A stretch of 36,799 nucleotides of DNA from Thiotrichaceae bacterium (GCA_026991885.1 JALXAQ010000233.1:1-36799), one strand, 5' to 3'; positions 2,583 through 15,043 are shown, counted from the first letter of the stretch. Notes: generated by a model not told the origin, from the sequence alone. Made by a program: numbers and translations.

Positions 2583-4206
2583 GCCTATTCTCTGAAAAAA
2601 GTGCGTGTGCCAATTTTGCTGCTAATTTTGGAAAATCTTCCATTTCTTCAATGCGAATGACGGTTGCTCCTGCTGCTTGATAGCGGGCATCGTTAAGTTC
2701 TCTCAAAGCATGTAGTAATAGGATAAGTTGTTGAGAGGATTGGATCGCTTCTCCCAAAATGCCGGCTGCTTGTTCGTGTTCATCATAATTATAATCAAAG
2801 TCGCTATCGCTGATGATAACGCGAATGGGTTGCGCGTCGCTAGAGTCTATCACTGAACTTTGTAGTTTTTCAAATGGAAATTGGGTGCCTGAGCCGATGT
2901 AGTGCATCAAAAAGCGCGACAATTCAATCTCGGAGCGGCACCATTGCCAATAGGCGACATGATCACTTGAATATAATAAAGCCCGTGCGCGTCCCCCGGC
3001 ACGAATAGCACCCATGACGAGTATTTGTGAAGCTAAGGTCATGGCATTGCGAGTATAGCGCGGATCGGGCATGGAGCCACTGACATCTAAATAAATTTCA
3101 ACTTTGGGTTGCCAGAGGGGGATGTCGTAGCCTTCAACTTCGGCTATTCTGTTGCGCTTTAAGGGTAGGGCGGCACCCAGTTGGTCTCCTCGATAGAGTA
3201 GTGTTGTTAACCAGTCTATATCTTGTACTGCATCTTGGGGTTCCCAGTCATCAATGGTGGTGGGGACGACGGCTTCTCCGAGTGTGCGCTGTGGCGGGGG
3301 GTGAATTAAATAACGCTCTGCTTGTTGGCGATAATAGGCGGCCATGATTTCTGGCACTTGATCGGCAGCCCCCTGTTGAAGTCCGGGCAGTCCCATGATA
3401 CGACGTTCAAGGGTATTTTGGCCATCCAGAGATTTTGCCTCTTTTTCATCGAGCCAGCCTTCTGCAAGGGCTCGGCGGATAGCTTCTTTTTCACGCGCAC
3501 TGGGGGTTAAGGCATCGGCCCAATCTTCTGGACTGGGCTCGTCTGCCGCGCATTGGTAGGGGTTGATATTTTTTGGGTGTTCAGGTGGCTTGATGTAGCG
3601 GCAGACGACGGAGATAAAGTAAAGAAATTGGGTATAAATGTTGGGGCCGAGATTGAAGAGATTTTGGGATAATAATTGTGCATCGGCGCGGTAGCTTGGA
3701 TATGCCTTTTCAAAGTCGGCGGCTCCCATCAGTGCGCCCTGTTCGGTTTGCCAAAGTTCTTCGTAAACGGCTAAATAAAAGAGAAAGGCGGGATCGTTGA
3801 GTGAGTTGTCATCAAAGGCTTGATAGATGCGAATGAGTTGGTCGCGTTGCGTATGCCCGATATGTTCGTTGATCATGATATCGGTAAATAGGTTAATCAG
3901 CGAATATTCTTCAATTGGGATCAGGGATTTTTCTAACAGGCGCAGACGGGCTTGGACAGCAAGCGTTCCCGGATAGCGTACATGATGCCCTATTTCGTGC
4001 GCCAGCAGGGCTTCGATACAGTCTTCTAGTCCTTTTTCTTTGATGGTTTTGTGGTTGAGCGTGATTTGTCTGTTGCCTAAGTGAATTTGGGCGATACTGT
4101 GTTGGTGTGAATCGTCTTTGGGTGTACTTAATAAGAGAAATTGTGACCAGTGGGCTTGTGCCTTTGGCCAGGTTTTGTTGATGATTTGATTGAGGCTTGT
4201 ACTCAT
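2557..4206 (-). CDS. Fused HExxH zinc-metallopeptidase-like N-domain plus von Willebrand A (MIDAS) C-domain protein; partner of the MoxR-like ATPase (DUF2201-like)
   Basis: LLAHEIGHHVRY (HExxH) near the N-terminus. IYLDVSGSM (DxSxS MIDAS) in the C-terminal half. 549 aa. Sits two genes downstream of the AAA+ ATPase. Confidence 0.8.
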   Translation of the reverse strand: MSTSLNQIINKTWPKAQAHWSQFLLLSTPKDDSHQHSIAQIHLGNRQITLNHKTIKEKGLEDCIEALLAHEIGHHVRYPGTLAVQARLRLLEKSLIPIEEYSLINLFTDIMINEHIGHTQRDQLIRIYQAFDDNSLNDPAFLFYLAVYEELWQTEQGALMGAADFEKAYPSYRADAQLLSQNLFNLGPNIYTQFLYFISVVCRYIKPPEHPKNINPYQCAADEPSPEDWADALTPSAREKEAIRRALAEGWLDEKEAKSLDGQNTLERRIMGLPGLQQGAADQVPEIMAAYYRQQAERYLIHPPPQRTLGEAVVPTTIDDWEPQDAVQDIDWLTTLLYRGDQLGAALPLKRNRIAEVEGYDIPLWQPKVEIYLDVSGSMPDPRYTRNAMTLASQILVMGAIRAGGRARALLYSSDHVAYWQWCRSEIELSRFLMHYIGSGTQFPFEKLQSSVIDSSDAQPIRVIISDSDFDYNYDEHEQAAGILGEAIQSSQQLILLLHALRELNDARYQAAGATVIRIEEMEDFPKLAAKLAHALFSENRHEHPSKIF

Positions 4207-4231
4207 TGCTTGTTCTCATTGATTGTCATTT

Positions 4232-5134
4232 TTAACCCGCAACCACTTGCCAAATCCGTTGTGAATCCACCGCAGTCACCAAGAGTTGCCCACAGAATAA
4301 ATATGAATAATGCTCACCAAGCCGTGTCAATTCTACCTTATTTGATTGAATTGTAACACTTGAGTCTTTAAATGTCAGATTTATATGACTTTCCTCGGTT
4401 TGGGTGTGTCCCAAGCATTTGTTATGATATAGCAAAGTCTTTGGCGCATTATTCATAAAAATACCCCCATAAACGCCATCCAGTCGGCGATCATGGACGC
4501 AAACCACGGAGGGGGCAACTTGGTGCATGTCTCCGGGGAGAAAGTTGTCGTGAATGTCGCGCCCGTCCAAAATGGAAACGCGATAGGGGGGGCGGGCTTT
4601 TTCCGGCGGACGTAGCAGCGGTGCGATAATCTCAATGAGAAAATTTTCGATTTTTGTCAAAGCCGGTAGTTCTTCGGCACGGGAGAGAATATAGAGCCCC
4701 ATCCAAGGGGTTTCTTGTCGTATATTTTCGCCCAAATTCCATATTTTTGTTATCAATTCTAATTGCTGTGCAGCGGGCACTTGAGATAAAGTCAGTGGAA
4801 TTTCTTTCAATAGACAATATTCAAGAAAGCTATTCCAAGTAATATTCAATGCTTGATGAGTGGCTTTTTTATTTTTAATCAAGTAGTTATATTGCCATTC
4901 TGGAATAGATTGTGTGATGTAAGCACTACCGATGCCTTCGCGGATCAAGTCCATGTAGCCAGCAAAGACTTTTTCTTTATTGTGTTGGTTGCGAATGTTG
5001 TGCCAGCAGAGTCGTGCCGCTCCTTTGCAAATTTCCAAGAAAAGTTCGTTATTCCAGTGGGCATATTGTTTTTGGCCGAGCGAATGGATGCGGTTGATTT
5101 CTTGGGTAAAATGTTGTGGTGTTTTGTTTGTCAT
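4232..5134 (-). CDS. Hypothetical protein (300 aa) in the MoxR-vWA operon
   Basis: ORF between the ATPase and the vWA gene with tight spacing. No recognisable motif. Confidence 0.5.
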   Translation of the reverse strand: MTNKTPQHFTQEINRIHSLGQKQYAHWNNELFLEICKGAARLCWHNIRNQHNKEKVFAGYMDLIREGIGSAYITQSIPEWQYNYLIKNKKATHQALNITWNSFLEYCLLKEIPLTLSQVPAAQQLELITKIWNLGENIRQETPWMGLYILSRAEELPALTKIENFLIEIIAPLLRPPEKARPPYRVSILDGRDIHDNFLPGDMHQVAPSVVCVHDRRLDGVYGGIFMNNAPKTLLYHNKCLGHTQTEESHINLTFKDSSVTIQSNKVELTRLGEHYSYLFCGQLLVTAVDSQRIWQVVAG

Positions 5135-5159
5135 TTTTTTTCAGTGCAGGCGCGTCGAG

Positions 5160-6671
5160 TTATGATCGGTTCAGTTTATGACGACATTGAACATAAAGGT
5201 GCTTTAATAAAACCAGGTCATTATGGACGGGGGCATTTAATTCATGTTTTGTCACCAAATTTTCCATTTCTTGTTGTAGCATCTGCAAACCTTGTTTGAG
5301 TTCTTGCTGTGGCAGTCCATCAATGCTTGTCTGAAGTTCTATGATAGGTTGTCGCAAGGCTTGATAAGCAACATGTTGTTTCAAGCTATGATCAAATAAT
5401 TGGCGTATCCAAGATACTTTGTCGGTTTGATAAACTTGATTTTCCGTTTTTTGAAAAAAGTCGCTTTGTGGATTGGGCTTGAGTTTTTCGTGTAATACCC
5501 AGGGCAAAATTTGACGGATGTCTTCATTTGAAACGGTGGTTTTTCCCCGAAAAAAGGCCAGTGCTTTGGCATAATGGATAATCGTTTGATAGGCGCGAGC
5601 GGATGCGCCGGATTCTGTTTGGGTGCAAATATTTTCAAATTTGTCCAGTGGACAATCTTCGGTGCAAACGTGTCCTACTCGGCGTCCGGCTAAATGAAGC
5701 GTATCTTTGTTTTGAAATTCCAGCGTATCCGATGCCCGTCGGCAAAAGTCGAGTTGCGAAATCAGAAATCCTAGAATTTCTAGTACTTCTGATGGCATTT
5801 CGATGGCGCGAATTTTTGTGCCGATTTGGTCTAATTCTTCAGGCGTAAAAATGATGTCAGTGGGCATGGGTTGCTCTGCGTTGTTTGCAATGCGCTTTGC
5901 TAATGCCGTCAGATAGCGGGTATTGAAAGGCGTACAGCGCACGACGATGTCGATACGATCTTTTAGGGCTTCAATGACTTGAAATGTGCCACCGCCTAAG
6001 TCATCATTTGCTGTCAAAAACCAGGCTGAATTTTGGCAGTGAATGATTTGTTCATACATTTCGGCATAGCCTTCTGCCATCAGGGACAGTAGACAGGATT
6101 GCGTTTTTGTTGGGATTCTGTTGTATTCGTCAATGATTTTGACGCGCATACTGATCCATTTGCGCCAGAGTACTCGGATATCGGCACTGTGACGCGCTTG
6201 AACTAAGTCGCTCGGCAAGGGGCTGCCCAATATATCGGCTTGCGTCATTTGTGGATGCCCGTGCTGAATGGCGTGTTTGATTTCGTCTAAGCTGTAGCCG
6301 GCAAGTAGTGCCATTAGGGTGGCAACGGTGGTTTTTCCCCGCCCGGGTGCTCCGATGAGTAAGAGGCGACGCGATGTCATCAAAGTCAGCAATGGCAAGA
6401 GGATAAAAGAGGCATAACTGTCTTCTGATGTTAAATTGATTTGTTGCTCGGAACGCCCCAAGGTGATGCGATGACCGTATTCTATGTCATTGTAGGGAGA
6501 ATAGATCGCGTTGTCTAGTATCCATTGATAGGCGAGCCGGCATTTTTCGGTGAGGTTGCCCGCTTTGGGGGATTTAAAGCTAATAGCTCCCGTGTCATCC
6601 AGTTGCGCTCTGCCTTTTAACCAGGATTGTACGAGTGTCTTAGCATCTGTTTGATGTGTGATGTTGTGCAT
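5160..6671 (-). CDS. MoxR-like AAA+ ATPase (AAA_5 type) with N- and C-terminal extensions
   Basis: Walker A LLLIGAPGRGKTTVA. Walker B/sensor region IIDEYNRIPTKTQSCLLSLMAEG, comparable to the MoxR LxDEINRAxPxxQSALLEAM. 503 aa. First gene of the operon. Confidence 0.8.
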   Translation of the reverse strand: MHNITHQTDAKTLVQSWLKGRAQLDDTGAISFKSPKAGNLTEKCRLAYQWILDNAIYSPYNDIEYGHRITLGRSEQQINLTSEDSYASFILLPLLTLMTSRRLLLIGAPGRGKTTVATLMALLAGYSLDEIKHAIQHGHPQMTQADILGSPLPSDLVQARHSADIRVLWRKWISMRVKIIDEYNRIPTKTQSCLLSLMAEGYAEMYEQIIHCQNSAWFLTANDDLGGGTFQVIEALKDRIDIVVRCTPFNTRYLTALAKRIANNAEQPMPTDIIFTPEELDQIGTKIRAIEMPSEVLEILGFLISQLDFCRRASDTLEFQNKDTLHLAGRRVGHVCTEDCPLDKFENICTQTESGASARAYQTIIHYAKALAFFRGKTTVSNEDIRQILPWVLHEKLKPNPQSDFFQKTENQVYQTDKVSWIRQLFDHSLKQHVAYQALRQPIIELQTSIDGLPQQELKQGLQMLQQEMENLVTKHELNAPVHNDLVLLKHLYVQCRHKLNRS

Positions 6672-6832
6672 AAGAATTTTGGATGTTTTTTGACTCTCAT
6701 TCTCTAATCATTTAATATTGCCATCGGGTATGATGCTTGAAACTTATCAGCGGTTCAGGTTCTGTATGCCTGTCTGGCGCACGGTCTGATGTGGCCTGTG
6801 TGTACCGAGAGCCGATGGCTATATCCACCATT

Positions 6833-6905
6833 CGTTAGATAGCTCATCAGGTAGAGCAACTGACTCATAATCAGTGTGTAGCAGGTTCGATTCCTGCTCT
6901 AACTC
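6833..6905 (+). tRNA. tRNA with anticodon CAU (Met or Ile2 type), 73 nt, no encoded CCA; acceptor stem AT-rich with a C1-U72 mismatch
   Basis: Folded by hand. Acceptor CGTTAGA/TCTAACT. D-arm GCTC-ATCAGGTA-GAGC. Anticodon arm ACTGA-CTCATAA-TCAGT (U33, CAT, A37). Variable loop GTGTA. T-arm GCAGG-TTCGATT-CCTGC. Discriminator C. Confidence 0.55.
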
Positions 6906-6908
6906 ATA

Positions 6909-6935
6909 TGACTTGCCAAGTCACTATTTTAACAC
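6909..6935 (+). terminator. Hairpin plus T-tract after the tRNA
   Basis: TGACTTGCCAAGTCA followed by CTATTTT. Confidence 0.35.
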
Positions 6936-7176
6936 AAGAACCGTGACCGTCTTCGGTGGGCATCAGTGATGCTCACAGCATGTTCAGGGCTTTGTGTGAT
7001 AATGGGTACGGCAAGCTTGGTTTTTTCTCTCCGTGTTGTCCCTAAACCCAAGCCAGATAGATTTTACGTTTTGGGGGCGGGCTGACGGGCGGATTAAATC
7101 CAGCTTGTCGCAAATTGTCACCCGCATTGTGCATGTGGGGGCGGTCATTTAATAAATGGAACAGGAGGCTAAAATC

Positions 7177-8307
7177 ATGTTGATATTCAGTCAATTTATT
7201 GTTCACAAAAATGAACGGGGATTGTTATTTAAAGAGGGTGACTTTTTGGATTTTTTGGCACCAGGCACTTATCGCTATTTTGATCCCTTGCATAAAATTC
7301 AAGTAGAACGCTATGATTTGTCTGTTCCAGAGTTTGAACATCGCTTGGTCGATTTTTTTATTAAAGAATATGCCGATGCTGTTGCGCGTTATTTTACAAT
7401 TATTGAATTGGGTGCCCAACAAGTCGCCTTACTCTATAAAAATGGACGATTAACGAATATTTTACCGCCTTCTAGCCGCCAATTGTATTGGAATGGGATT
7501 GTGGAGGTTAAGACAGAAATTATTGATATTTCAGACAAATTTGAAATTTCGCGTGTTCAAGCCGCGCCGCTTGTGTATGCACCTGTACAAGGTGTGAATG
7601 AAGCTATTTATAGTCAAGAAGTGCCAGAATATCAGATTGGTTTGTTGTATGTTGATGGACAATGTATTAAAACCTTGCAACCCGGTTTACACGCTTATTG
7701 GCAATTTAATCGTCATATCAATATTGTTATGTGGGATACCCGCCTACAAGATATAGAAGTTTCTGGACAAGAAATTCTGACCAAAGATAAAGTGAGTTTG
7801 CGTGTGAATCTATCTGCGACTTATTCTATTAAAAATGTGCAGCGTGCAACCTCTACTTTAACTAATCCCGTTAATTATTTGTATAAAGAATTGCAATTTG
7901 GGCTACGCGCTGCGGTGGGTACTCGTACTTTAGATGAATTGTTAGGTAATAAAAATGTGATTGATGAGATCGTGTTTGCCTATATCCGCGATAAGATGGC
8001 GGAATTGGGTATTGAAGTGCAAAGCGTGGGCGTAAAAGACATCATTTTGCCGGGTGAGATGAAAACGATTTTGGCTAAAGTGGTTGAAGCGGAAAAGGTA
8101 GCACAAGCGAATTTAATCAAACGCCGTGAGGAGACGGCTGCGACTCGCTCCTTGCTGAATACGGCTAAAGTGATGGAAGATAATCCGACCGCTTTACGGT
8201 TGAAAGAGCTTGAGGTACTTGAGAAGGTGACGGAGAAAATTGGTAAACTATCTGTGTATGGCGGCTTGGAAGGTTTATTGAAGGAATTGGTTAAAATTAA
8301 GACTTAA
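7177..8307 (+). CDS. SPFH/Band-7 (stomatin/prohibitin/flotillin-like) domain protein
   Basis: NERGLLFKEG opening typical of SPFH proteins. Long C-terminal coiled coil (KVVEAEKVAQANLIKRREETAA). AGGAGG RBS 9 nt upstream of the ATG at 7177. Confidence 0.75.
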   Translation: MLIFSQFIVHKNERGLLFKEGDFLDFLAPGTYRYFDPLHKIQVERYDLSVPEFEHRLVDFFIKEYADAVARYFTIIELGAQQVALLYKNGRLTNILPPSSRQLYWNGIVEVKTEIIDISDKFEISRVQAAPLVYAPVQGVNEAIYSQEVPEYQIGLLYVDGQCIKTLQPGLHAYWQFNRHINIVMWDTRLQDIEVSGQEILTKDKVSLRVNLSATYSIKNVQRATSTLTNPVNYLYKELQFGLRAAVGTRTLDELLGNKNVIDEIVFAYIRDKMAELGIEVQSVGVKDIILPGEMKTILAKVVEAEKVAQANLIKRREETAATRSLLNTAKVMEDNPTALRLKELEVLEKVTEKIGKLSVYGGLEGLLKELVKIKT

Positions 8308-9285
<978 letters not shown>

Positions 9286-9287
9286 TT

Positions 9288-9328
9288 TGAACGACAGGGA
9301 TTAATTATTAGCAGGGATAAGTCAAAAC
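9288..9328 (+). repeat. Copy 2 of the roughly 40-bp intergenic repeat
   Basis: TTGAACGACAGGGATTAATTATTAGCAGGGATAAGTCAAAAC directly after the trxB stop. Confidence 0.7.
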
Positions 9329-9344
9329 ATTATATTTTCGTTGT

Positions 9345-9400
9345 TTCGGGAATGGAGCTGATTTCCCGAAACAAAACTTCAAAAAAGTCGTTTTTTTTCC
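9345..9400 (+). terminator. Rho-independent terminator of trxB
   Basis: 12-bp stem TTGTTTCGGGAA...TTCCCGAAACAA followed by an A/T run ending in TTTTTTTT. Confidence 0.6.
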
Positions 9401-9447
9401 GGTAGAAGTTGTACTTATCGCAAACTGATAGGTGGTAATAACTTAAT

Positions 9448-9951
9448 ATGAGCAAAAAAAATTTTGATGCTTTTCTCAAAAAACATGAATCAAAAAAGAA
9501 AGAAGAAAATAATTGGGATGAAATAAAAAGAGAATGGCTTGATAAGGTAAGAGAATTCTATTCTCTTGTACATAAATGGTTAAAGGAGTATGAAAAACAA
9601 GGCCAAGCCAAACTAAAATTTTTGCCGTACTGGCTAAATGAGGAATATATTGGCAGTTACGAAACTCAAAAATTACACCTTAAAATAGCTAACCAAGAGA
9701 TCGTATTTCTCCCTATTGGTACACGATTATTTGGAGCAAAAGGTCGAATTGATATGGAGGGCATAGCCGGTAAGGTCAAGTTTTTATTGGTTGATAAAAA
9801 TGCCACAAGAGCAGGCGTTAAAGTCAAACTTTATGATGGAAAAAACCTTGATTGGGTTTGGAAAATAGCAACCCCTCCGCCTACAATTCAATTAATTGAA
9901 TTGAATGAGGAAAGTTTTTTTGATGCAGTAATGGAAGTGATAAATGGGTAA
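9448..9951 (+). CDS. Hypothetical Lys-rich protein (167 aa), first gene of an AT-rich two-gene module
   Basis: AT-rich codon usage distinct from its neighbours. RBS AGGTGG upstream. The stop overlaps the next gene's start (ATGGGTAA). Confidence 0.6.
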   Translation: MSKKNFDAFLKKHESKKKEENNWDEIKREWLDKVREFYSLVHKWLKEYEKQGQAKLKFLPYWLNEEYIGSYETQKLHLKIANQEIVFLPIGTRLFGAKGRIDMEGIAGKVKFLLVDKNATRAGVKVKLYDGKNLDWVWKIATPPPTIQLIELNEESFFDAVMEVING

Positions 9952-10483
9952 GCGAGTAAACTTTTCTGACTCAAATCTGGAGCTACATGAAATTACTCAG
10001 CATCATACTGAGACAGAAAATGCCTTGAAGGAATATTATGGTGTTGACGGTAAAAGAGAGTTTCTACCCGTTAAGTTCATTGGCTATTCGGCAGAAGAGG
10101 TATTTATCGAGTTTCGTTCCAGAATTGAAGAATTAGAAAAAACGTCATCATTGACTTTGTTGTCATCGCTTGAAGCCAAACTAAGAATTGATTATCTAAA
10201 ACGCTGTTATCAAAAAGGAAAAGATGGTTTATCAAAGGATTTTAGAGCAATACACAAGCAAAAATATCATCGAGCCTCTTTAGAAGAAGATATTCTTGAA
10301 ACTTGGAAAAAACATTACCCTGAAAAAAAATGGCTAATATCTGAGTTGCTTGGGGCTTTAAAGTATAGGCATTGGCTTGCTCACGGTCGTTATTGGGAAC
10401 CAAAATTAGGCAGAAAATACGATTACTCATACATTTATTCTTTAATAGAGCAAGCCTATAAAAACTTACCATTGAAGAGTTAA
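9944..10483 (+). CDS. Hypothetical protein with a C-terminal HEPN-like Rx4H motif (YRHWLAHGRYW); candidate RNase, toxin or Abi effector
   Basis: R-x4-H in LKYRHWLAHG near the C-terminus of a 179-aa alpha-helical-looking protein. Translationally coupled to the upstream gene. Confidence 0.5.
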   Translation: MGKRVNFSDSNLELHEITQHHTETENALKEYYGVDGKREFLPVKFIGYSAEEVFIEFRSRIEELEKTSSLTLLSSLEAKLRIDYLKRCYQKGKDGLSKDFRAIHKQKYHRASLEEDILETWKKHYPEKKWLISELLGALKYRHWLAHGRYWEPKLGRKYDYSYIYSLIEQAYKNLPLKS

Positions 10484-10497
10484 TCGCATAACAATAC

Positions 10498-10530
10498 CAG
10501 CTTTAAGTTAACGACAGCCAATTTTGATTT
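10498..10530 (+). repeat. Degenerate copy of the roughly 40-bp intergenic repeat
   Basis: AGTTAACGACAGCC... after the stop at 10483. Only the AACGACAG core is conserved. Confidence 0.35.
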
Positions 10531-10602
10531 GACATATCCTAATAAATGTCCAATACTGTATTTGAATGTATCCAGCTTTGTTTTTAATTGAGACTATAAG
10601 TT

Positions 10603-11220
10603 ATGAAAAAAAAATTTGCTTCATTCCTCATCACAGGGAAAGCGGCTACGCTCCCCTTTTTTATGAATAACAGCGTGGCTGATACCAACCTTGCAGATAT
10701 GTTATTCGATAGCAGCCAACCACAGCTAATGGAACGAGCGGGGCAAGGCATTGCGGTGACAGGTGACACGGTGCAAATCGTATCCCCTGGTCCTGGCTGT
10801 TCGTTCCCTCAGCCCACTGACATCATGAATGTCGTTGTCACGGGCGTGCGTAACGGTGATTTTGTTTTCATCGCTTCTGCTGATAACAAAGACGATCCAA
10901 ATTTTATCGCTGTCAATCCCGCTTTTAGAATTGGTCAACAAAACTTGCGTATTTTGACCAGCTTTTATGTCGATAGATTGGAATTGTCGCCACTATCCGG
11001 TTTCGAGCATGGAGGCGGCGATTTGGGCAACGCAGTGTCTGCCATTTCGGTGCCTGTGGATTTGAATCAAATATCAAGCACTGGTTTATTTTATATGCAA
11101 GCTTTGATTCTGCGTCCTAATCCGCTTACAGCAGAATTGCCAGCTACTATGGTTTTTTCAGAATTGGATGAAATTAAGCAAGTGACAGCGACTTGTGACT
11201 CTTATGGTATACATTACTAA
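10603..11220 (+). CDS. Secreted hypothetical protein (signal peptide)
   Basis: MKKKFASFLITGKAATLPFFMNNSVA-DT signal-peptide-like N-terminus. Followed by a terminator hairpin. Confidence 0.6.
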   Translation: MKKKFASFLITGKAATLPFFMNNSVADTNLADMLFDSSQPQLMERAGQGIAVTGDTVQIVSPGPGCSFPQPTDIMNVVVTGVRNGDFVFIASADNKDDPNFIAVNPAFRIGQQNLRILTSFYVDRLELSPLSGFEHGGGDLGNAVSAISVPVDLNQISSTGLFYMQALILRPNPLTAELPATMVFSELDEIKQVTATCDSYGIHY

Positions 11221-11226
11221 GGAGTG

Positions 11227-11256
11227 GTGCAAGGTACGCCTTGCACATCTTTTTTT
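11227..11256 (+). terminator. Rho-independent terminator (GTGCAAGGTACGCCTTGCAC plus T7)
   Basis: 8-bp stem with a TACG loop followed by ATCTTTTTTT. The same 18-mer recurs inverted at 33778. Confidence 0.6.
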
Positions 11257-11841
11257 ATGAGTGATACACTTTTATTTGTTGGCAAGTCTGTTAGCCTCCG
11301 TCATATTGTCCCCTCGGATGCACCTTTATACCATATTTGGCTACAAAATCCGAACTTTTTAGCCTACAAGCCCTATCTCAAGCGATTGTGCCCGACTGCG
11401 GTACAATTAGCCGTACATTTAGCGATGCAAGCACAGTCTAATCCCCGCACTGAGTTTGAAGTTTTGGTCATACAGCAGAAGAAACCCATCGGTATCATTG
11501 GCTTATCTAGTATTGATGAATTTAACCAAAAAGCTGAATTTTCAGCGGGTTTTATAAGTGGATATGGCACTCGATGTATTTGGGAAGCAATTCATGCCAG
11601 CATTGCGCTCAGTTTTACCCATTTTAAGCTGCACAAATTGATTTGCTATGTGGCTGTTCATAATCATCAGGTACTCAAAATAATGCAGCGTTATGGCTTC
11701 ATACATGAGGGCTATTTTAAGGAAGAAATATTGGTCGATGATAATCAGCGGCTCGATTTACAGCGTTTTGCGTTAATGCAGCGCGATTGGCAGCAACATC
11801 CTTTGTATCAACGTTTTAAGCGTATTGTGCCAATTAGCTAA
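11257..11841 (+). CDS. GNAT family N-acetyltransferase (RimJ/RimL-like)
   Basis: GIIGLSSIDEFNQKAEFSAGF and HKLICYVAVHNHQVLKIMQRYGFIHEGYF match GNAT A/B motif architecture. Start moved to MSDTLLF because the upstream Met lies in the terminator. Confidence 0.7.
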   Translation: MSDTLLFVGKSVSLRHIVPSDAPLYHIWLQNPNFLAYKPYLKRLCPTAVQLAVHLAMQAQSNPRTEFEVLVIQQKKPIGIIGLSSIDEFNQKAEFSAGFISGYGTRCIWEAIHASIALSFTHFKLHKLICYVAVHNHQVLKIMQRYGFIHEGYFKEEILVDDNQRLDLQRFALMQRDWQQHPLYQRFKRIVPIS

Positions 11842-11845
11842 ACCT

Positions 11846-11890
11846 TAACGACAGGGATTAGTTTTTAGCAGGGATAGGTCAAAACCGAAC
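11846..11890 (+). repeat. Copy 3 of the roughly 40-bp intergenic repeat
   Basis: TTAACGACAGGGATTAGTTTTTAGCAGGGATAGGTCAAAACCGAAC after the GNAT stop. Confidence 0.7.
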
Positions 11891-11926
11891 GCGAGCCGCC
11901 AATTTTTAACAAGGCTCCATACATTC

Positions 11927-14900
11927 ATGAAAAAAGAAACTATTCTTGTTTTTGCCCCCCATCCTGATGATGAAATTTTGGGCTGTGGCGCTTATATCGC
12001 TAAACGACGAGCGGATGGCGTGAGATGTTACGTCGTCGTCGTTAGCGACGGTGCGCGAGGCTTGCCCAGAGGAACGCTACCGGATGTCCGTCAACAAGAA
12101 TGTCGAGCCGGGTTGGCGTGTTTAGGGATTGATGATGTGCAATTTTGGGAATATCCCGATGGTGGTGTGCCATTGAGCGGCGATATTTTGCATGATTATC
12201 GGCGCATTGTTGCGGAACTGAAGCCGACTATTATTTTATTACCTAACCCGCAAGAGTCTCATTCTGATCATCGGCGCGTGACGCGAGGTGTGTTAAATGC
12301 CCTCGAAGAGCAGTGGCAAGGGCATTTATTATTTTATGAAACCGTGCATCCGGCAACCGTCATCAATCATGTCGTTGACATTTCCAGTACTTTCGATAAA
12401 AAATTACAGGCGATACAGGAACATAAGTCACAACTCCGCTCTTTTGATTTCGCTACTCATGTAGAGACTTTGGCACGTTTGCGTGGCTTACATGTTAAGG
12501 CGGAGTGTGCCGAAGCCTTTCTGCAACATGAATGGGATGGCACGGCGCAAAATTTTTTTGAAACTCGTCCCCTCATTTCAGTGATTGTGCGTGCCGATGA
12601 TGCGGATTATCTCCGCCATGCTTTGATCAGTTTAATTCATCAAACTTATGAACAATTTGAAGTGATTTTGGTTTGGTTTGGCGGCGATTCTCCCTCGCTC
12701 AAAGACTTTGATGTTTTAGATATTCGTTTTTTCCCGGGTAAACCCTCACGCAGTTTCAATCTCAATCAAGGTTTGCGCTATGCGCGTGGCGAATATGTCG
12801 CTATGCTTGATCAAGACGATATATTATATCCGCAACACTTTGCTTGCCTGCTCGCCGAAATTCACGGACAACCCCAGATAGATGTCGTGTATAGTGGTTG
12901 CAAAGTCGTTGCCTGCGAGAAAATTGACCAGCGAGTCAAAGTCAATAAAGTCATTGATGTTATGAACCGCCCTTGGCAGCCGGGGCGTTTATTGATTGGT
13001 AACACTATTCCTAACCATGCCCTGTTGTTTCGTGCTTCGGTGTTTCATAGTCATCAATTTGATGAAGATTTTGAAATTTATGAAGATTGGGAATTCTTGT
13101 CTCGCTTGAGCAATTTGACTTTTGTACATGTGGATGAGATTAGCTGTGAGTATCGTATTTTCAGCGACACCGAAATCCAATCATACATTCAAGTCCATAA
13201 GGATAAAGGTTATCTCGACCATGCACAAAAGGTCATTACATCAATTCTCAAAAATTTAGAATTGAACGACTTTGAGAAAATTATTTCTTTAGTCAACCAT
13301 TTAGAAAAGCAACAACATTTATTAACGATTCAATTGAGTGAACAAACTCAACAGCGCCAAGCACTCGCCCAACAGCTTGAACAGTCCCACCGTTTGGAGC
13401 AATTACTTGCCGATACGTGTGCCGCTGTTGGCATTGAGGCGGCGGGGAGACAGGGCATCGCGCAACTCATTGGGCGGACGCTGCCCCAGCAAACTTTGTT
13501 TTCAATTATTTTGCCTGTTTATAATACGGAGGCTACTATTCTCCGCCAAACTCTGTTGTCGGTACGCAATCAAGCCTATAGTGGTTGGGAATTGTGTTTA
13601 GTGGATGATGGCTCAGATCGTGAGGAAACGCGGCAAGTGTTGCAAGCGGTGCAAAATGATCCTGTGCTCGCAAAACGTTTACATTATCTGCGCCGCGACA
13701 CCCAAGGGGGTATTGTGGCTGCCAGCAATGATGCGATCAAAATGGCAACGGCTCCTTATGTCGCTTTTCTTGATCATGATGATAATTTGCACCATGAAGC
13801 TTTACTCAGGCTCGCTTTGAAACTTGAGCAAGAAGATTATACGTTGCTCTATACTGACAGCCGTATGATAGATCACAGCGGGCAAGCGATGCATACTTAT
13901 CAAAAAGCGGATTGGTCTCCTGAAACTTTGTTGCATTTTAATTATATTAATCATCTCACTGTCGTTAAGCGAGAAATATTGAAGGATGGATTGCGTGCTG
14001 ATTTTAATGGCGCACAAGATTGGGATTTATTGTTGCAATTAGTGGGTTTGCCAGATGAGCAGGTGTGTCATATACGCCACCCCCTTTATGATTGGCGAGC
14101 GACGGAAAGTTCGGTCGCTTACCAAGGTGATGAAAAAACTTATGCTTTTGAAGCGGCACAATCGGCGCTGATAAGTCACTTAACGGGGCGTGGTTTAGAA
14201 GAGGTTACTGCTAATAAAAAAGGGGCGGGATTTGTTTGTCAATGGCGTTCTCCCTTAGAGCCCATCGACATTATCATTCCCACCCATAGTAACCTGAGTG
14301 GACTCAAAACTTGCCTCAATGGTTTATTGCAATTGACTGATTATCCTCAATTCAATATTATTGTTGTTGCAAACCGCTGTGCTGCGCCAGTACAGAATTA
14401 TCTCAATTCTCTTGGGCAGATTAAAATATTGGTCAATGATGAGCCATTTAATTGGTCAACTCTGAATAATCAGGCTGTTATCTCGGGAGAGAGCCCTATT
14501 TTGTTGTTTTTAAACGATGATATTGAAATTAAACAGGCCAGTTGGTTGGGCGATCTCAGGCGGTATTTATATTTAGATGGTGTAGGCGCCGTCGGTGCTA
14601 CGCTGTTTTATCCAAATGACGATTTGCAACATAATGGTATCGAAACTAATCCGCAATGGGTTGCCCGTAATATCCAAAAATCGGGCAATGCGCTCCGTGC
14701 CACCCGCAACGTTTCGGCGGTGACGGGGGCGTGTCTATTAACTAAACGAAGCGTGTGGCAACAGGTGGGCGGATTCGATGAAAATTTGGCAGTATCGTAT
14801 AACGATGTTGATTTTTGTTTAGCCATCCGTCGCCAAGGACTGAGAATTGTCCAAGCCACAGATGTTGAGTTGATTCACGATGAACATGCTACTTATGGCA

Positions 14901-15043
14901 CGGTTGATAATCCCGAAAAAGAAGCTCTTTTTCGCAAAGAAATCAATTTTATGCGAGAAAAGTGGGGAGATTTTTTGAGTGAACGTTACATGCCACGTTA
15001 CGATGTACAAGCACAAAAGACGCGCATTTTACACTTAAAATGA
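11927..15043 (+). CDS. Multidomain protein: N-terminal PIG-L/LmbE-type (CE14) deacetylase plus three GT2 glycosyltransferase domains
   Basis: FAPHPDDEILGCGA LmbE/PIG-L motif at the N-terminus. Three GT2 cores: ISVIVRA...LDQDD, FSIILPVYN...VDDGSD...FLDHDD, and IDIIIPTH...FLNDDIEI. 1038 aa. Confidence 0.85.
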   Translation: MKKETILVFAPHPDDEILGCGAYIAKRRADGVRCYVVVVSDGARGLPRGTLPDVRQQECRAGLACLGIDDVQFWEYPDGGVPLSGDILHDYRRIVAELKPTIILLPNPQESHSDHRRVTRGVLNALEEQWQGHLLFYETVHPATVINHVVDISSTFDKKLQAIQEHKSQLRSFDFATHVETLARLRGLHVKAECAEAFLQHEWDGTAQNFFETRPLISVIVRADDADYLRHALISLIHQTYEQFEVILVWFGGDSPSLKDFDVLDIRFFPGKPSRSFNLNQGLRYARGEYVAMLDQDDILYPQHFACLLAEIHGQPQIDVVYSGCKVVACEKIDQRVKVNKVIDVMNRPWQPGRLLIGNTIPNHALLFRASVFHSHQFDEDFEIYEDWEFLSRLSNLTFVHVDEISCEYRIFSDTEIQSYIQVHKDKGYLDHAQKVITSILKNLELNDFEKIISLVNHLEKQQHLLTIQLSEQTQQRQALAQQLEQSHRLEQLLADTCAAVGIEAAGRQGIAQLIGRTLPQQTLFSIILPVYNTEATILRQTLLSVRNQAYSGWELCLVDDGSDREETRQVLQAVQNDPVLAKRLHYLRRDTQGGIVAASNDAIKMATAPYVAFLDHDDNLHHEALLRLALKLEQEDYTLLYTDSRMIDHSGQAMHTYQKADWSPETLLHFNYINHLTVVKREILKDGLRADFNGAQDWDLLLQLVGLPDEQVCHIRHPLYDWRATESSVAYQGDEKTYAFEAAQSALISHLTGRGLEEVTANKKGAGFVCQWRSPLEPIDIIIPTHSNLSGLKTCLNGLLQLTDYPQFNIIVVANRCAAPVQNYLNSLGQIKILVNDEPFNWSTLNNQAVISGESPILLFLNDDIEIKQASWLGDLRRYLYLDGVGAVGATLFYPNDDLQHNGIETNPQWVARNIQKSGNALRATRNVSAVTGACLLTKRSVWQQVGGFDENLAVSYNDVDFCLAIRRQGLRIVQATDVELIHDEHATYGTVDNPEKEALFRKEINFMREKWGDFLSERYMPRYDVQAQKTRILHLK

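Follow-up and report, generated by a model that had tools for sequence, protein, structure and literature searches.

The window analysed here, a 36,799-nucleotide stretch of DNA from a Thiotrichaceae bacterium (GCA_026991885.1, JALXAQ010000233.1:1-36799), contains two small overlapping open reading frames (ORFs) on the plus strand, gene A (9448..9951; 167 residues) and gene B (9944..10483; 179 residues), that together make up one accessory, horizontally mobile cassette. Overall, we believe the pair is a self-contained mobile toxin-antitoxin (TA) or abortive-infection module, a reading to which we assign a probability of roughly 60%, with B, a protein of predicted HEPN fold, as the putative metal-independent ribonuclease (RNase) toxin and A as the predicted antitoxin or regulator. 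A preliminary description of this DNA had proposed a candidate toxin or abortive-infection module built around a HEPN-like protein, and our analysis supports that proposal as far as computation can carry it; toxicity, neutralisation and defence are what we infer from it.

A and B constitute one unit, as is evident from their pairing, their order, their overlap and their joint divergence. A pattern scan for relatives of B, with one genome per species, returned at least 306 loci among 185,579 species genomes, and 80 of these were fetched for gene context. About 77 of the 80 have an A homologue immediately upstream in the same orientation, the exceptions being contig ends or disrupted copies, and no third gene is conserved among the loci, the next-best cluster occurring in 6 of them. 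In the window the two genes overlap by 8 nt (ATGGGTAA, 9944..9951, plus strand), such that the ATG of B falls within the last codons and stop of A, and this arrangement, as ATGnnTRR, is retained in 65 of 72 loci across phyla. It is preceded in most of the loci listed by TGGA[AG]GT, a Shine-Dalgarno-like sequence that also encodes Met-Glu-Val of A; its counterpart in the window, a putative ribosome-binding GGAAG for B at 9933..9937 (plus strand), ends 6 nt 5' of the B ATG and is embedded in the conserved Met-Glu-Val codons. Both the overlap and the translational coupling had been claimed from the window sequence, and both hold well beyond it. Pairwise distances among A proteins correlate with those among their B partners (r 0.77; 0 of 999 permutations exceeded 0.16), and both genes are under purifying selection, with A evolving faster (ratio of nonsynonymous to synonymous rates 0.26-0.28 for A and 0.14-0.17 for B). 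Thus the layout is that of a type II TA system: two small, adjacent, co-directional and coupled genes, inherited together and mobile.

The module has the marks of an accessory, mobile element: a relative that shares A and B and nothing around them, low GC content, relatives in distant phyla, carriage on plasmids and prophages, and copies set among TA, restriction-modification and Cmr genes or beside a PIN pair. In another Thiotrichaceae genome (L002), blastn finds 81% nucleotide identity to the window solely over 9443..10483 (plus strand), which we take as the extent of the cassette; the flanks are unrelated, and in L002 the cassette sits between a methyltransferase gene and an aminotransferase-like gene. 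A and B together have a GC content of 0.343, where the window averages 0.432; this is the lowest value among 358 segments of equal size and makes the pair the most AT-rich kilobase of the window, compared with 0.47 for a thioredoxin reductase gene (trxB) and 0.44 for a glycosyltransferase gene. Lysine makes up 14.4% of A and 11.7% of B as against 3-7% of the neighbouring proteins, and GC content at third codon positions is 0.28 and 0.30 as against 0.36-0.43, so the preliminary description of two AT-rich, lysine-rich genes of 167 and 179 residues is accurate in coordinates and composition alike. The low GC content is general: in 46 of 48 loci the cassette has a lower value than the DNA on either side, the difference averaging 8.8 points. 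The same description had named synteny in all relatives, together with housekeeping codon usage, as grounds for abandoning its proposal; the unrelated flanks of L002 and this consistent GC deficit do not bear that picture out.

The distribution of the B family is patchy and spans unrelated phyla, including Pseudomonadota, Acidobacteriota, Bacillota, Cyanobacteria, Spirochaetota, Desulfobacterota, Latescibacterota and others, and the nearest relatives of the gammaproteobacterial copy in the window come from Desulfobacterota, Zixibacteria, Spirochaetia and Syntrophaceae. A distant branch of the pair occurs in PLSDB on 18 Klebsiella and Raoultella plasmids, including ColRNAI replicons of 3.7-4.7 kb that have A and B as their main cargo and also bear rop, an ORF for replication initiation and a helix-turn-helix gene. 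The Klebsiella plasmid proteins are 26-28% identical to those of the window, with hhalign probabilities of 99.8-99.9 for both, and the gene order and 8-nt overlap are the same. One such pair lies at 1472-2582 of L081 (NZ_CP044041.1), with B at 2031-2582, and all plasmid copies are annotated as hypothetical. Records of the Klebsiella B protein exist for about 500 contigs, and some larger plasmids from clinical Klebsiella and Raoultella bear the pair too; complete E. coli genomes gave no match to the Klebsiella cassette DNA. Among viral sequences, eight IMG/VR contigs carry B, with A upstream in 8 of 8 and with genes for terminase, holin, a CI-type repressor, ParB and HNH proteins among the neighbours, and no copy of the pair occurs in GenBank phage genomes. 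In a metagenomic lineage (L090-L095, about 3700-8800) the order is HicB, XisH/XisI, A-B, HicB/HicA and an Eco57I-type methylase, with Cmr3 and RAMP genes nearby in one variant and distal flanks that vary by contig; elsewhere in metagenomes a PIN-domain pair lies directly 5' of A-B, and in another context an IS110 transposase lies near it.

The closest relative of the window locus is found in a metagenome-assembled Pseudomonadota genome (L001), where the cassette (5505-6540) is 96-98% identical in nucleotides to that of the window, with a synonymous divergence (dS) of 0.06-0.10, and the flanking genes are 92-93.5% identical, with a dS of 0.33 for trxB. The higher conservation of the cassette could reflect recent exchange between relatives or strong sequence constraint.

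We assign B to the HEPN domains on the basis of its predicted fold and motif geometry. An AlphaFold model built from a 52-sequence alignment is confident (predicted local distance difference test score 89.2; predicted template-modelling score 0.83) and all-helical, with an up-and-down four-helix core like that of solved HEPN domains, and its closest structural matches are the HEPN toxins of HEPN-MNT systems, including the AMPylated toxin 8xdj. The published account of the superfamily describes an Rx4-6H motif that straddles the end of core helix 3 and the beginning of the loop after it, a polar N, D or H directly after the motif arginine, and a second acidic residue, usually as Ex3[KR], in the preceding helix (PMC3710099). 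B has all three. R142-H143-x3-H147 falls where the helix 126-146 gives way to a loop, the residue after the arginine is a histidine, and E77-x3-R81 lies inside the helix 50-90 that precedes the Rx4H helix. The corresponding codons are at 10367..10396 (R142-H-W-L-A-H147-G-R-Y-W) and 10172..10186 (E77-A-K-L-R81), both on the plus strand. Among the 52 diverse aligned homologues R142, H143, H147 and E77 are invariant, and R81 is conserved in at least 90%; across the wider family the decapeptide RHW[LMI]AHGRYW is found in 221 of 223 sequences and Ex3[KR][IVL]D in 204 of 223. A lone R-x4-H could arise by chance; one kept in 221 of 223 sequences and so placed in the structure does not. The HEPN-like Rx4H signature noticed in the window, and the helical bundle that structure prediction was expected to place around it, are therefore both borne out, with one correction of position: the motif had been put at the very end of the protein, and it occupies residues 142-151 of 179, ahead of a loop and the last helix (161-174). 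Tyr150, three residues past the catalytic histidine (Rx4HGRY), is likewise invariant.

Despite this geometry, hidden Markov models place B outside every Pfam HEPN family, and it is recognisable only through structure and motif. No Pfam HEPN model matched the window protein, the homologues P0040 and P0119 or the family consensus at E<=10, and at E<=1 none appeared among the 25 most-matched of the 46 families hit by 52 members of the family. Scans of NCBIfam, PADLOC and PHROGs with the window protein returned only noise, and a search of the PDB with the B-family profile returned nothing. Public names for B homologues are inconsistent across P0040, P0119 and P0038: UniRef calls P0040 and P0119 'RiboL-PSP-HEPN domain-containing protein', and JGI names one homologue 'predicted CopG family antitoxin'. 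The UniRef label means that a database had already linked the B family to HEPN, a link that current Pfam does not reproduce.

Protein A is the less familiar half of the pair. In its model an antiparallel sheet of seven strands is preceded by two helices at the N-terminus and followed by one at the C-terminus, a topology like that of frataxin/CyaY, and its family shares the motifs NEExIGxY, PIGTxLIGAKGRVDM, WVWKIATPPP and ELNEESFFDALMEV. A single-sequence search found 103 relatives; when the family profile was run against representatives of 1.84 billion clusters (at 50% identity), at least 2,475 matched at E<=1e-3, 408 of them at E<=1e-30, and nearly all the matches are standalone proteins of 175-190 residues. 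Pfam (searched with the window protein, 50 homologues and the consensus), NCBIfam, PADLOC and PHROGs gave no match beyond noise, and PADLOC-DB v2 returned 0 families at E<=10 for either protein, in agreement with the earlier statement that neither resembles a known family. Searching the PDB with the A-family profile gave no match at E<1, and Foldseek found nothing significant (best E 0.18, template-modelling score 0.23). We detect no sequence or profile homology of A to frataxin and do not place it in the frataxin/CyaY family; the modelled resemblance concerns the fold alone and does not speak for homology or a common function. Sub-threshold matches of residues ~4-81 of A (9448-9690) to PF20277 (CTD11 of the ABC-3C conflict systems; best E 6.5e-4, in 3 of 50 members) and to PF24465 (Tri-helical domain) are probably compositional, and we treat the match of the N-terminal helices to Brig1 (E 0.01; 15 bits, where the cutoff is 230) in the same way.

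A general pathway for the action of the pair can nonetheless be proposed. With its complete catalytic signature, Ex3R together with R-H-x3-H, B most likely forms a dimer that cuts RNA independently of metal, by analogy with the behaviour of HEPN proteins that bear this signature (PMC3710099). A, an alpha/beta sandwich that is usually acidic, would be translated from the same mRNA in fixed proportion to B, and would most likely bind B and hold it inactive; the small gene upstream, the conserved coupling and the acidic-basic complementarity of the two families (median isoelectric point 5.5 for A, 8.9 for B) all point this way. Consider, then, a cell in which A disappears, whether by phage-induced shut-off, by proteolysis, or because the plasmid or prophage that carries the pair is lost. 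B would be freed to cleave cellular or phage RNA, and growth would be arrested. It is from these features that we infer RNase activity, toxicity, direct binding of A to B, and the trigger. An RNA component, as in a type I or type III antitoxin, was considered and rejected, since Rfam gave no matches at E<=1 and no meaningful tandem repeats occur within 9000-12000.

Several observations weigh against this pathway. Pfam scans of the window protein and its homologues detected no helix-turn-helix or ribbon-helix-helix domain in A, so the usual autoregulation of type II systems is not evident. The Gly, Arg, Asp and Lys motifs of A are unusually strongly conserved for a simple inhibitor, which leaves room for an enzymatic or ligand-sensing role. 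The window copy of A is itself basic (isoelectric point 9.05), unlike the family median. Association with defence islands is no more than possible: some loci clearly fall within clusters of TA, restriction-modification and CRISPR genes, and 150 immediate neighbours are mostly housekeeping genes, with a few DarTG (x2), AbiEii, PD-T4-6, PD-Lambda-5 and integrase genes among them. Finally, at three loci (L019, L043 and L058) B appears intact where A looks disrupted, or the reverse. We set these loci aside as a test of antitoxin essentiality, because they come from long-read metagenome bins in which frameshift errors are likely, and the cases are therefore uninformative.

The conservation of A admits other accounts of how the pair might work. 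A might sense a phage protein or small ligand by way of its conserved loops and activate a latent HEPN RNase, giving abortive infection without a classic TA relationship. The strong conservation of surface-type motifs (NEExIGxY, GAKGRVDM, WKIATPPP), the size and uniformity of the A family, its lack of a DNA-binding domain, and the presence of the pair in prophages and, in some genomes, beside restriction-modification, CRISPR and TA genes would all suit such a sensor. Yet a small acidic protein encoded upstream of a basic nuclease, tightly coupled to it in translation and forming with it the sole cargo of tiny plasmids, is the classic antitoxin-toxin layout, and with few defence genes among the neighbours and no PADLOC match we regard activation by A as unlikely. 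Alternatively, A might neutralise B enzymatically, in the manner of type VII systems, by covalent modification near the active site, for example at Tyr150 of Rx4HGRY. MNT proteins AMPylate the Tyr of Rx4HxY in HepT toxins, and B, whose best structural matches are the toxins of just such systems, AMPylated 8xdj included, has an invariant Tyr at H+3, and in A the loop GAKGR-x-D is rich in Gly and there are Glu and Lys residues that never vary. But the Tyr spacing is H+3 and not H+2, A has no nucleotidyltransferase (NTase) match in Pfam, its predicted fold is a frataxin-like alpha/beta sandwich and not of the pol-beta type, and we know of no enzyme with its topology; covalent modification of B is accordingly very unlikely in our view. 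A somewhat broader proposition, that A founds a new class of HEPN regulator, of frataxin topology, acting by sensing or by modification of Tyr150 and not by stoichiometric inhibition, we hold as a tentative possibility that is itself doubtful; the invariant NEExIGxY, GAKGRxD and WKIATPPP might then be its sensing loops.

It is also conceivable that the pair is no toxin at all, and that A and B form an RNA-processing or regulatory complex of benefit to the host. Purifying selection on both genes is compatible with this, as are neighbours that are mostly housekeeping genes and the position of the window pair between trxB and cell-envelope genes, which is the same in L001. A cellular complex, however, would hardly be so patchy, in 306 of 185,579 species genomes and in unrelated phyla, nor would it be expected to change flanking genes even among close copies, to keep a GC content consistently below that of its hosts, or to ride on plasmids and prophages. 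We consider it a poor candidate, and retain a mobile TA or abortive-infection module as the best account of the pair.

The surroundings of the cassette add one further correction. The preliminary description had noted a repeat of roughly 40 bp on either side of the pair and had taken it as a sign of insertion. The repeat is real: a 39-nt direct repeat, 36 of 39 positions identical, with copies at 9290-9328 and 11847-11885, both intergenic, a match that 0 of 100 shuffles reproduced. From these positions it brackets four ORFs (A, B, a 205-residue ORF of unknown function and a GNAT acetyltransferase gene) and not the pair alone; the second copy lies 1.4 kb downstream of the pair, and directly 3' of B no repeat-like sequence occurs, the alignment score being below the shuffle mean. 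The second copy, moreover, sits within an insertion of about 65 nt that is missing from L001, which is 93% identical and fully syntenic, and the first copy is degenerate there. We therefore reject the repeat as an insertion scar of A and B, and the argument for insertion drawn from it is unsupported. Each copy holds the sub-repeat [AG]CAGGGAT twice, and the repeat may represent a small element dispersed between genes, or else a regulator site. Just 3' of trxB, at 9341-9374, is a perfect 12-nt inverted repeat (TTGTTTCGGGAA, 10 nt, TTCCCGAAACAA), which is found in L001 as well, with a longer loop. The hairpin is terminator-like, but no T-run follows it and for that reason a terminator scan did not call it.

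On the 5' side the pair is adjoined by an SPFH/Band-7 gene and trxB, and on the 3' side by the 205-residue ORF, the GNAT acetyltransferase gene and a gene for a multi-domain glycosyltransferase of 1038 residues. The 205-residue ORF (10603-11220) has a hydrophobic, signal-peptide-like N-terminus and no Pfam match, and it adjoins the pair in L001 too and not in other loci. The 1038-residue protein (11927-15043) is a fused envelope-glycan enzyme of unusual size, in which a PIG-L-type de-N-acetylase domain is joined to three GT2 glycosyltransferase domains.

HEPN RNases drive many TA systems, abortive-infection systems and CRISPR effectors, among them HepT, RnlA, the Abi proteins, Csm6 and Cas13. 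In this context, it matters that a large pair of protein families has escaped every curated model library searched, and that A is not among the known regulators of HEPN nucleases (the MNT, RnlB and Dmd types). Characterising the pair would add a mechanism of HEPN-nuclease control and an entry to the annotation of TA and defence systems, and the ColE1-type plasmids of clinical Klebsiella, at 3.7-4.7 kb, offer a tractable experimental system; as cargo, the pair is also a possible explanation for the persistence of these cryptic plasmids. Should A prove to found a new regulator class, the pair would represent an unnamed and widespread type of defence or TA system, with thousands of clusters and with some copies on plasmids of clinical Klebsiella. 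Many HEPN toxin modules have been predicted; what sets this one apart is the size of the family, its spread, its absence from the curated libraries searched, its partner and its accessibility on Klebsiella plasmids.

We found no description of the A-B pair in the literature, and its relation to known systems is best drawn by comparison. The closest is HepT/MntA, of type VII (SO_3166/SO_3165, PDB 5yep; Aphanizomenon 7ae2 and 8xdj), whose toxin, like B, is a minimal single-domain Rx4H HEPN protein with a conserved Tyr just past the catalytic His, and whose small partner gene lies immediately 5' in the operon, as A does. Unlike MntA, which is a minimal nucleotidyltransferase, A is a predicted frataxin-like sandwich with no NTase signature; unlike HepT, B has about 50 additional N-terminal residues, carries Rx4HGRY in place of Rx4HxY, and has no sequence match to the Pfam HEPN models, HepT/DUF86 included. 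Since the defining NTase partner is absent, the pair is not a HEPN-MNT system. In the anti-phage systems RnlA-RnlB and LsoA-LsoB, a HEPN RNase is restrained through binding by a small dedicated protein, as we propose for A and B, and these systems too are plasmid- or chromosome-borne. RnlA and LsoA each have three domains in about 350 residues, and their genes precede those of the antitoxins, unlike B, which is a single domain of 179 residues encoded downstream of its partner; the A family, for its part, has no PDB sequence match at E<1 and so matches none of the antitoxins deposited there. With frataxin and CyaY, A shares a predicted topology, to which it adds an extra N-terminal helix and motifs of its own, and it has no link to iron-sulfur genes. 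The Abi-type HEPN and RiboL-PSP-HEPN proteins share the conserved Rx4-6H and are tied to abortive infection and genome conflict, but they are described as single proteins, as L-PSP fusions or in ParB operons, with no A-like partner described (Anantharaman et al. 2013, PMC3710099), and the current HEPN models of Pfam match neither the 52 B members nor the two proteins that UniRef labels so, nor the consensus. The pair is thus most likely a HEPN toxin module with a previously unrecognised partner family, one in which B would act as the HEPN toxins of the HepT/MntA and RnlA/LsoA systems do, and that is likely to represent an uncharacterised TA or phage-defence system.
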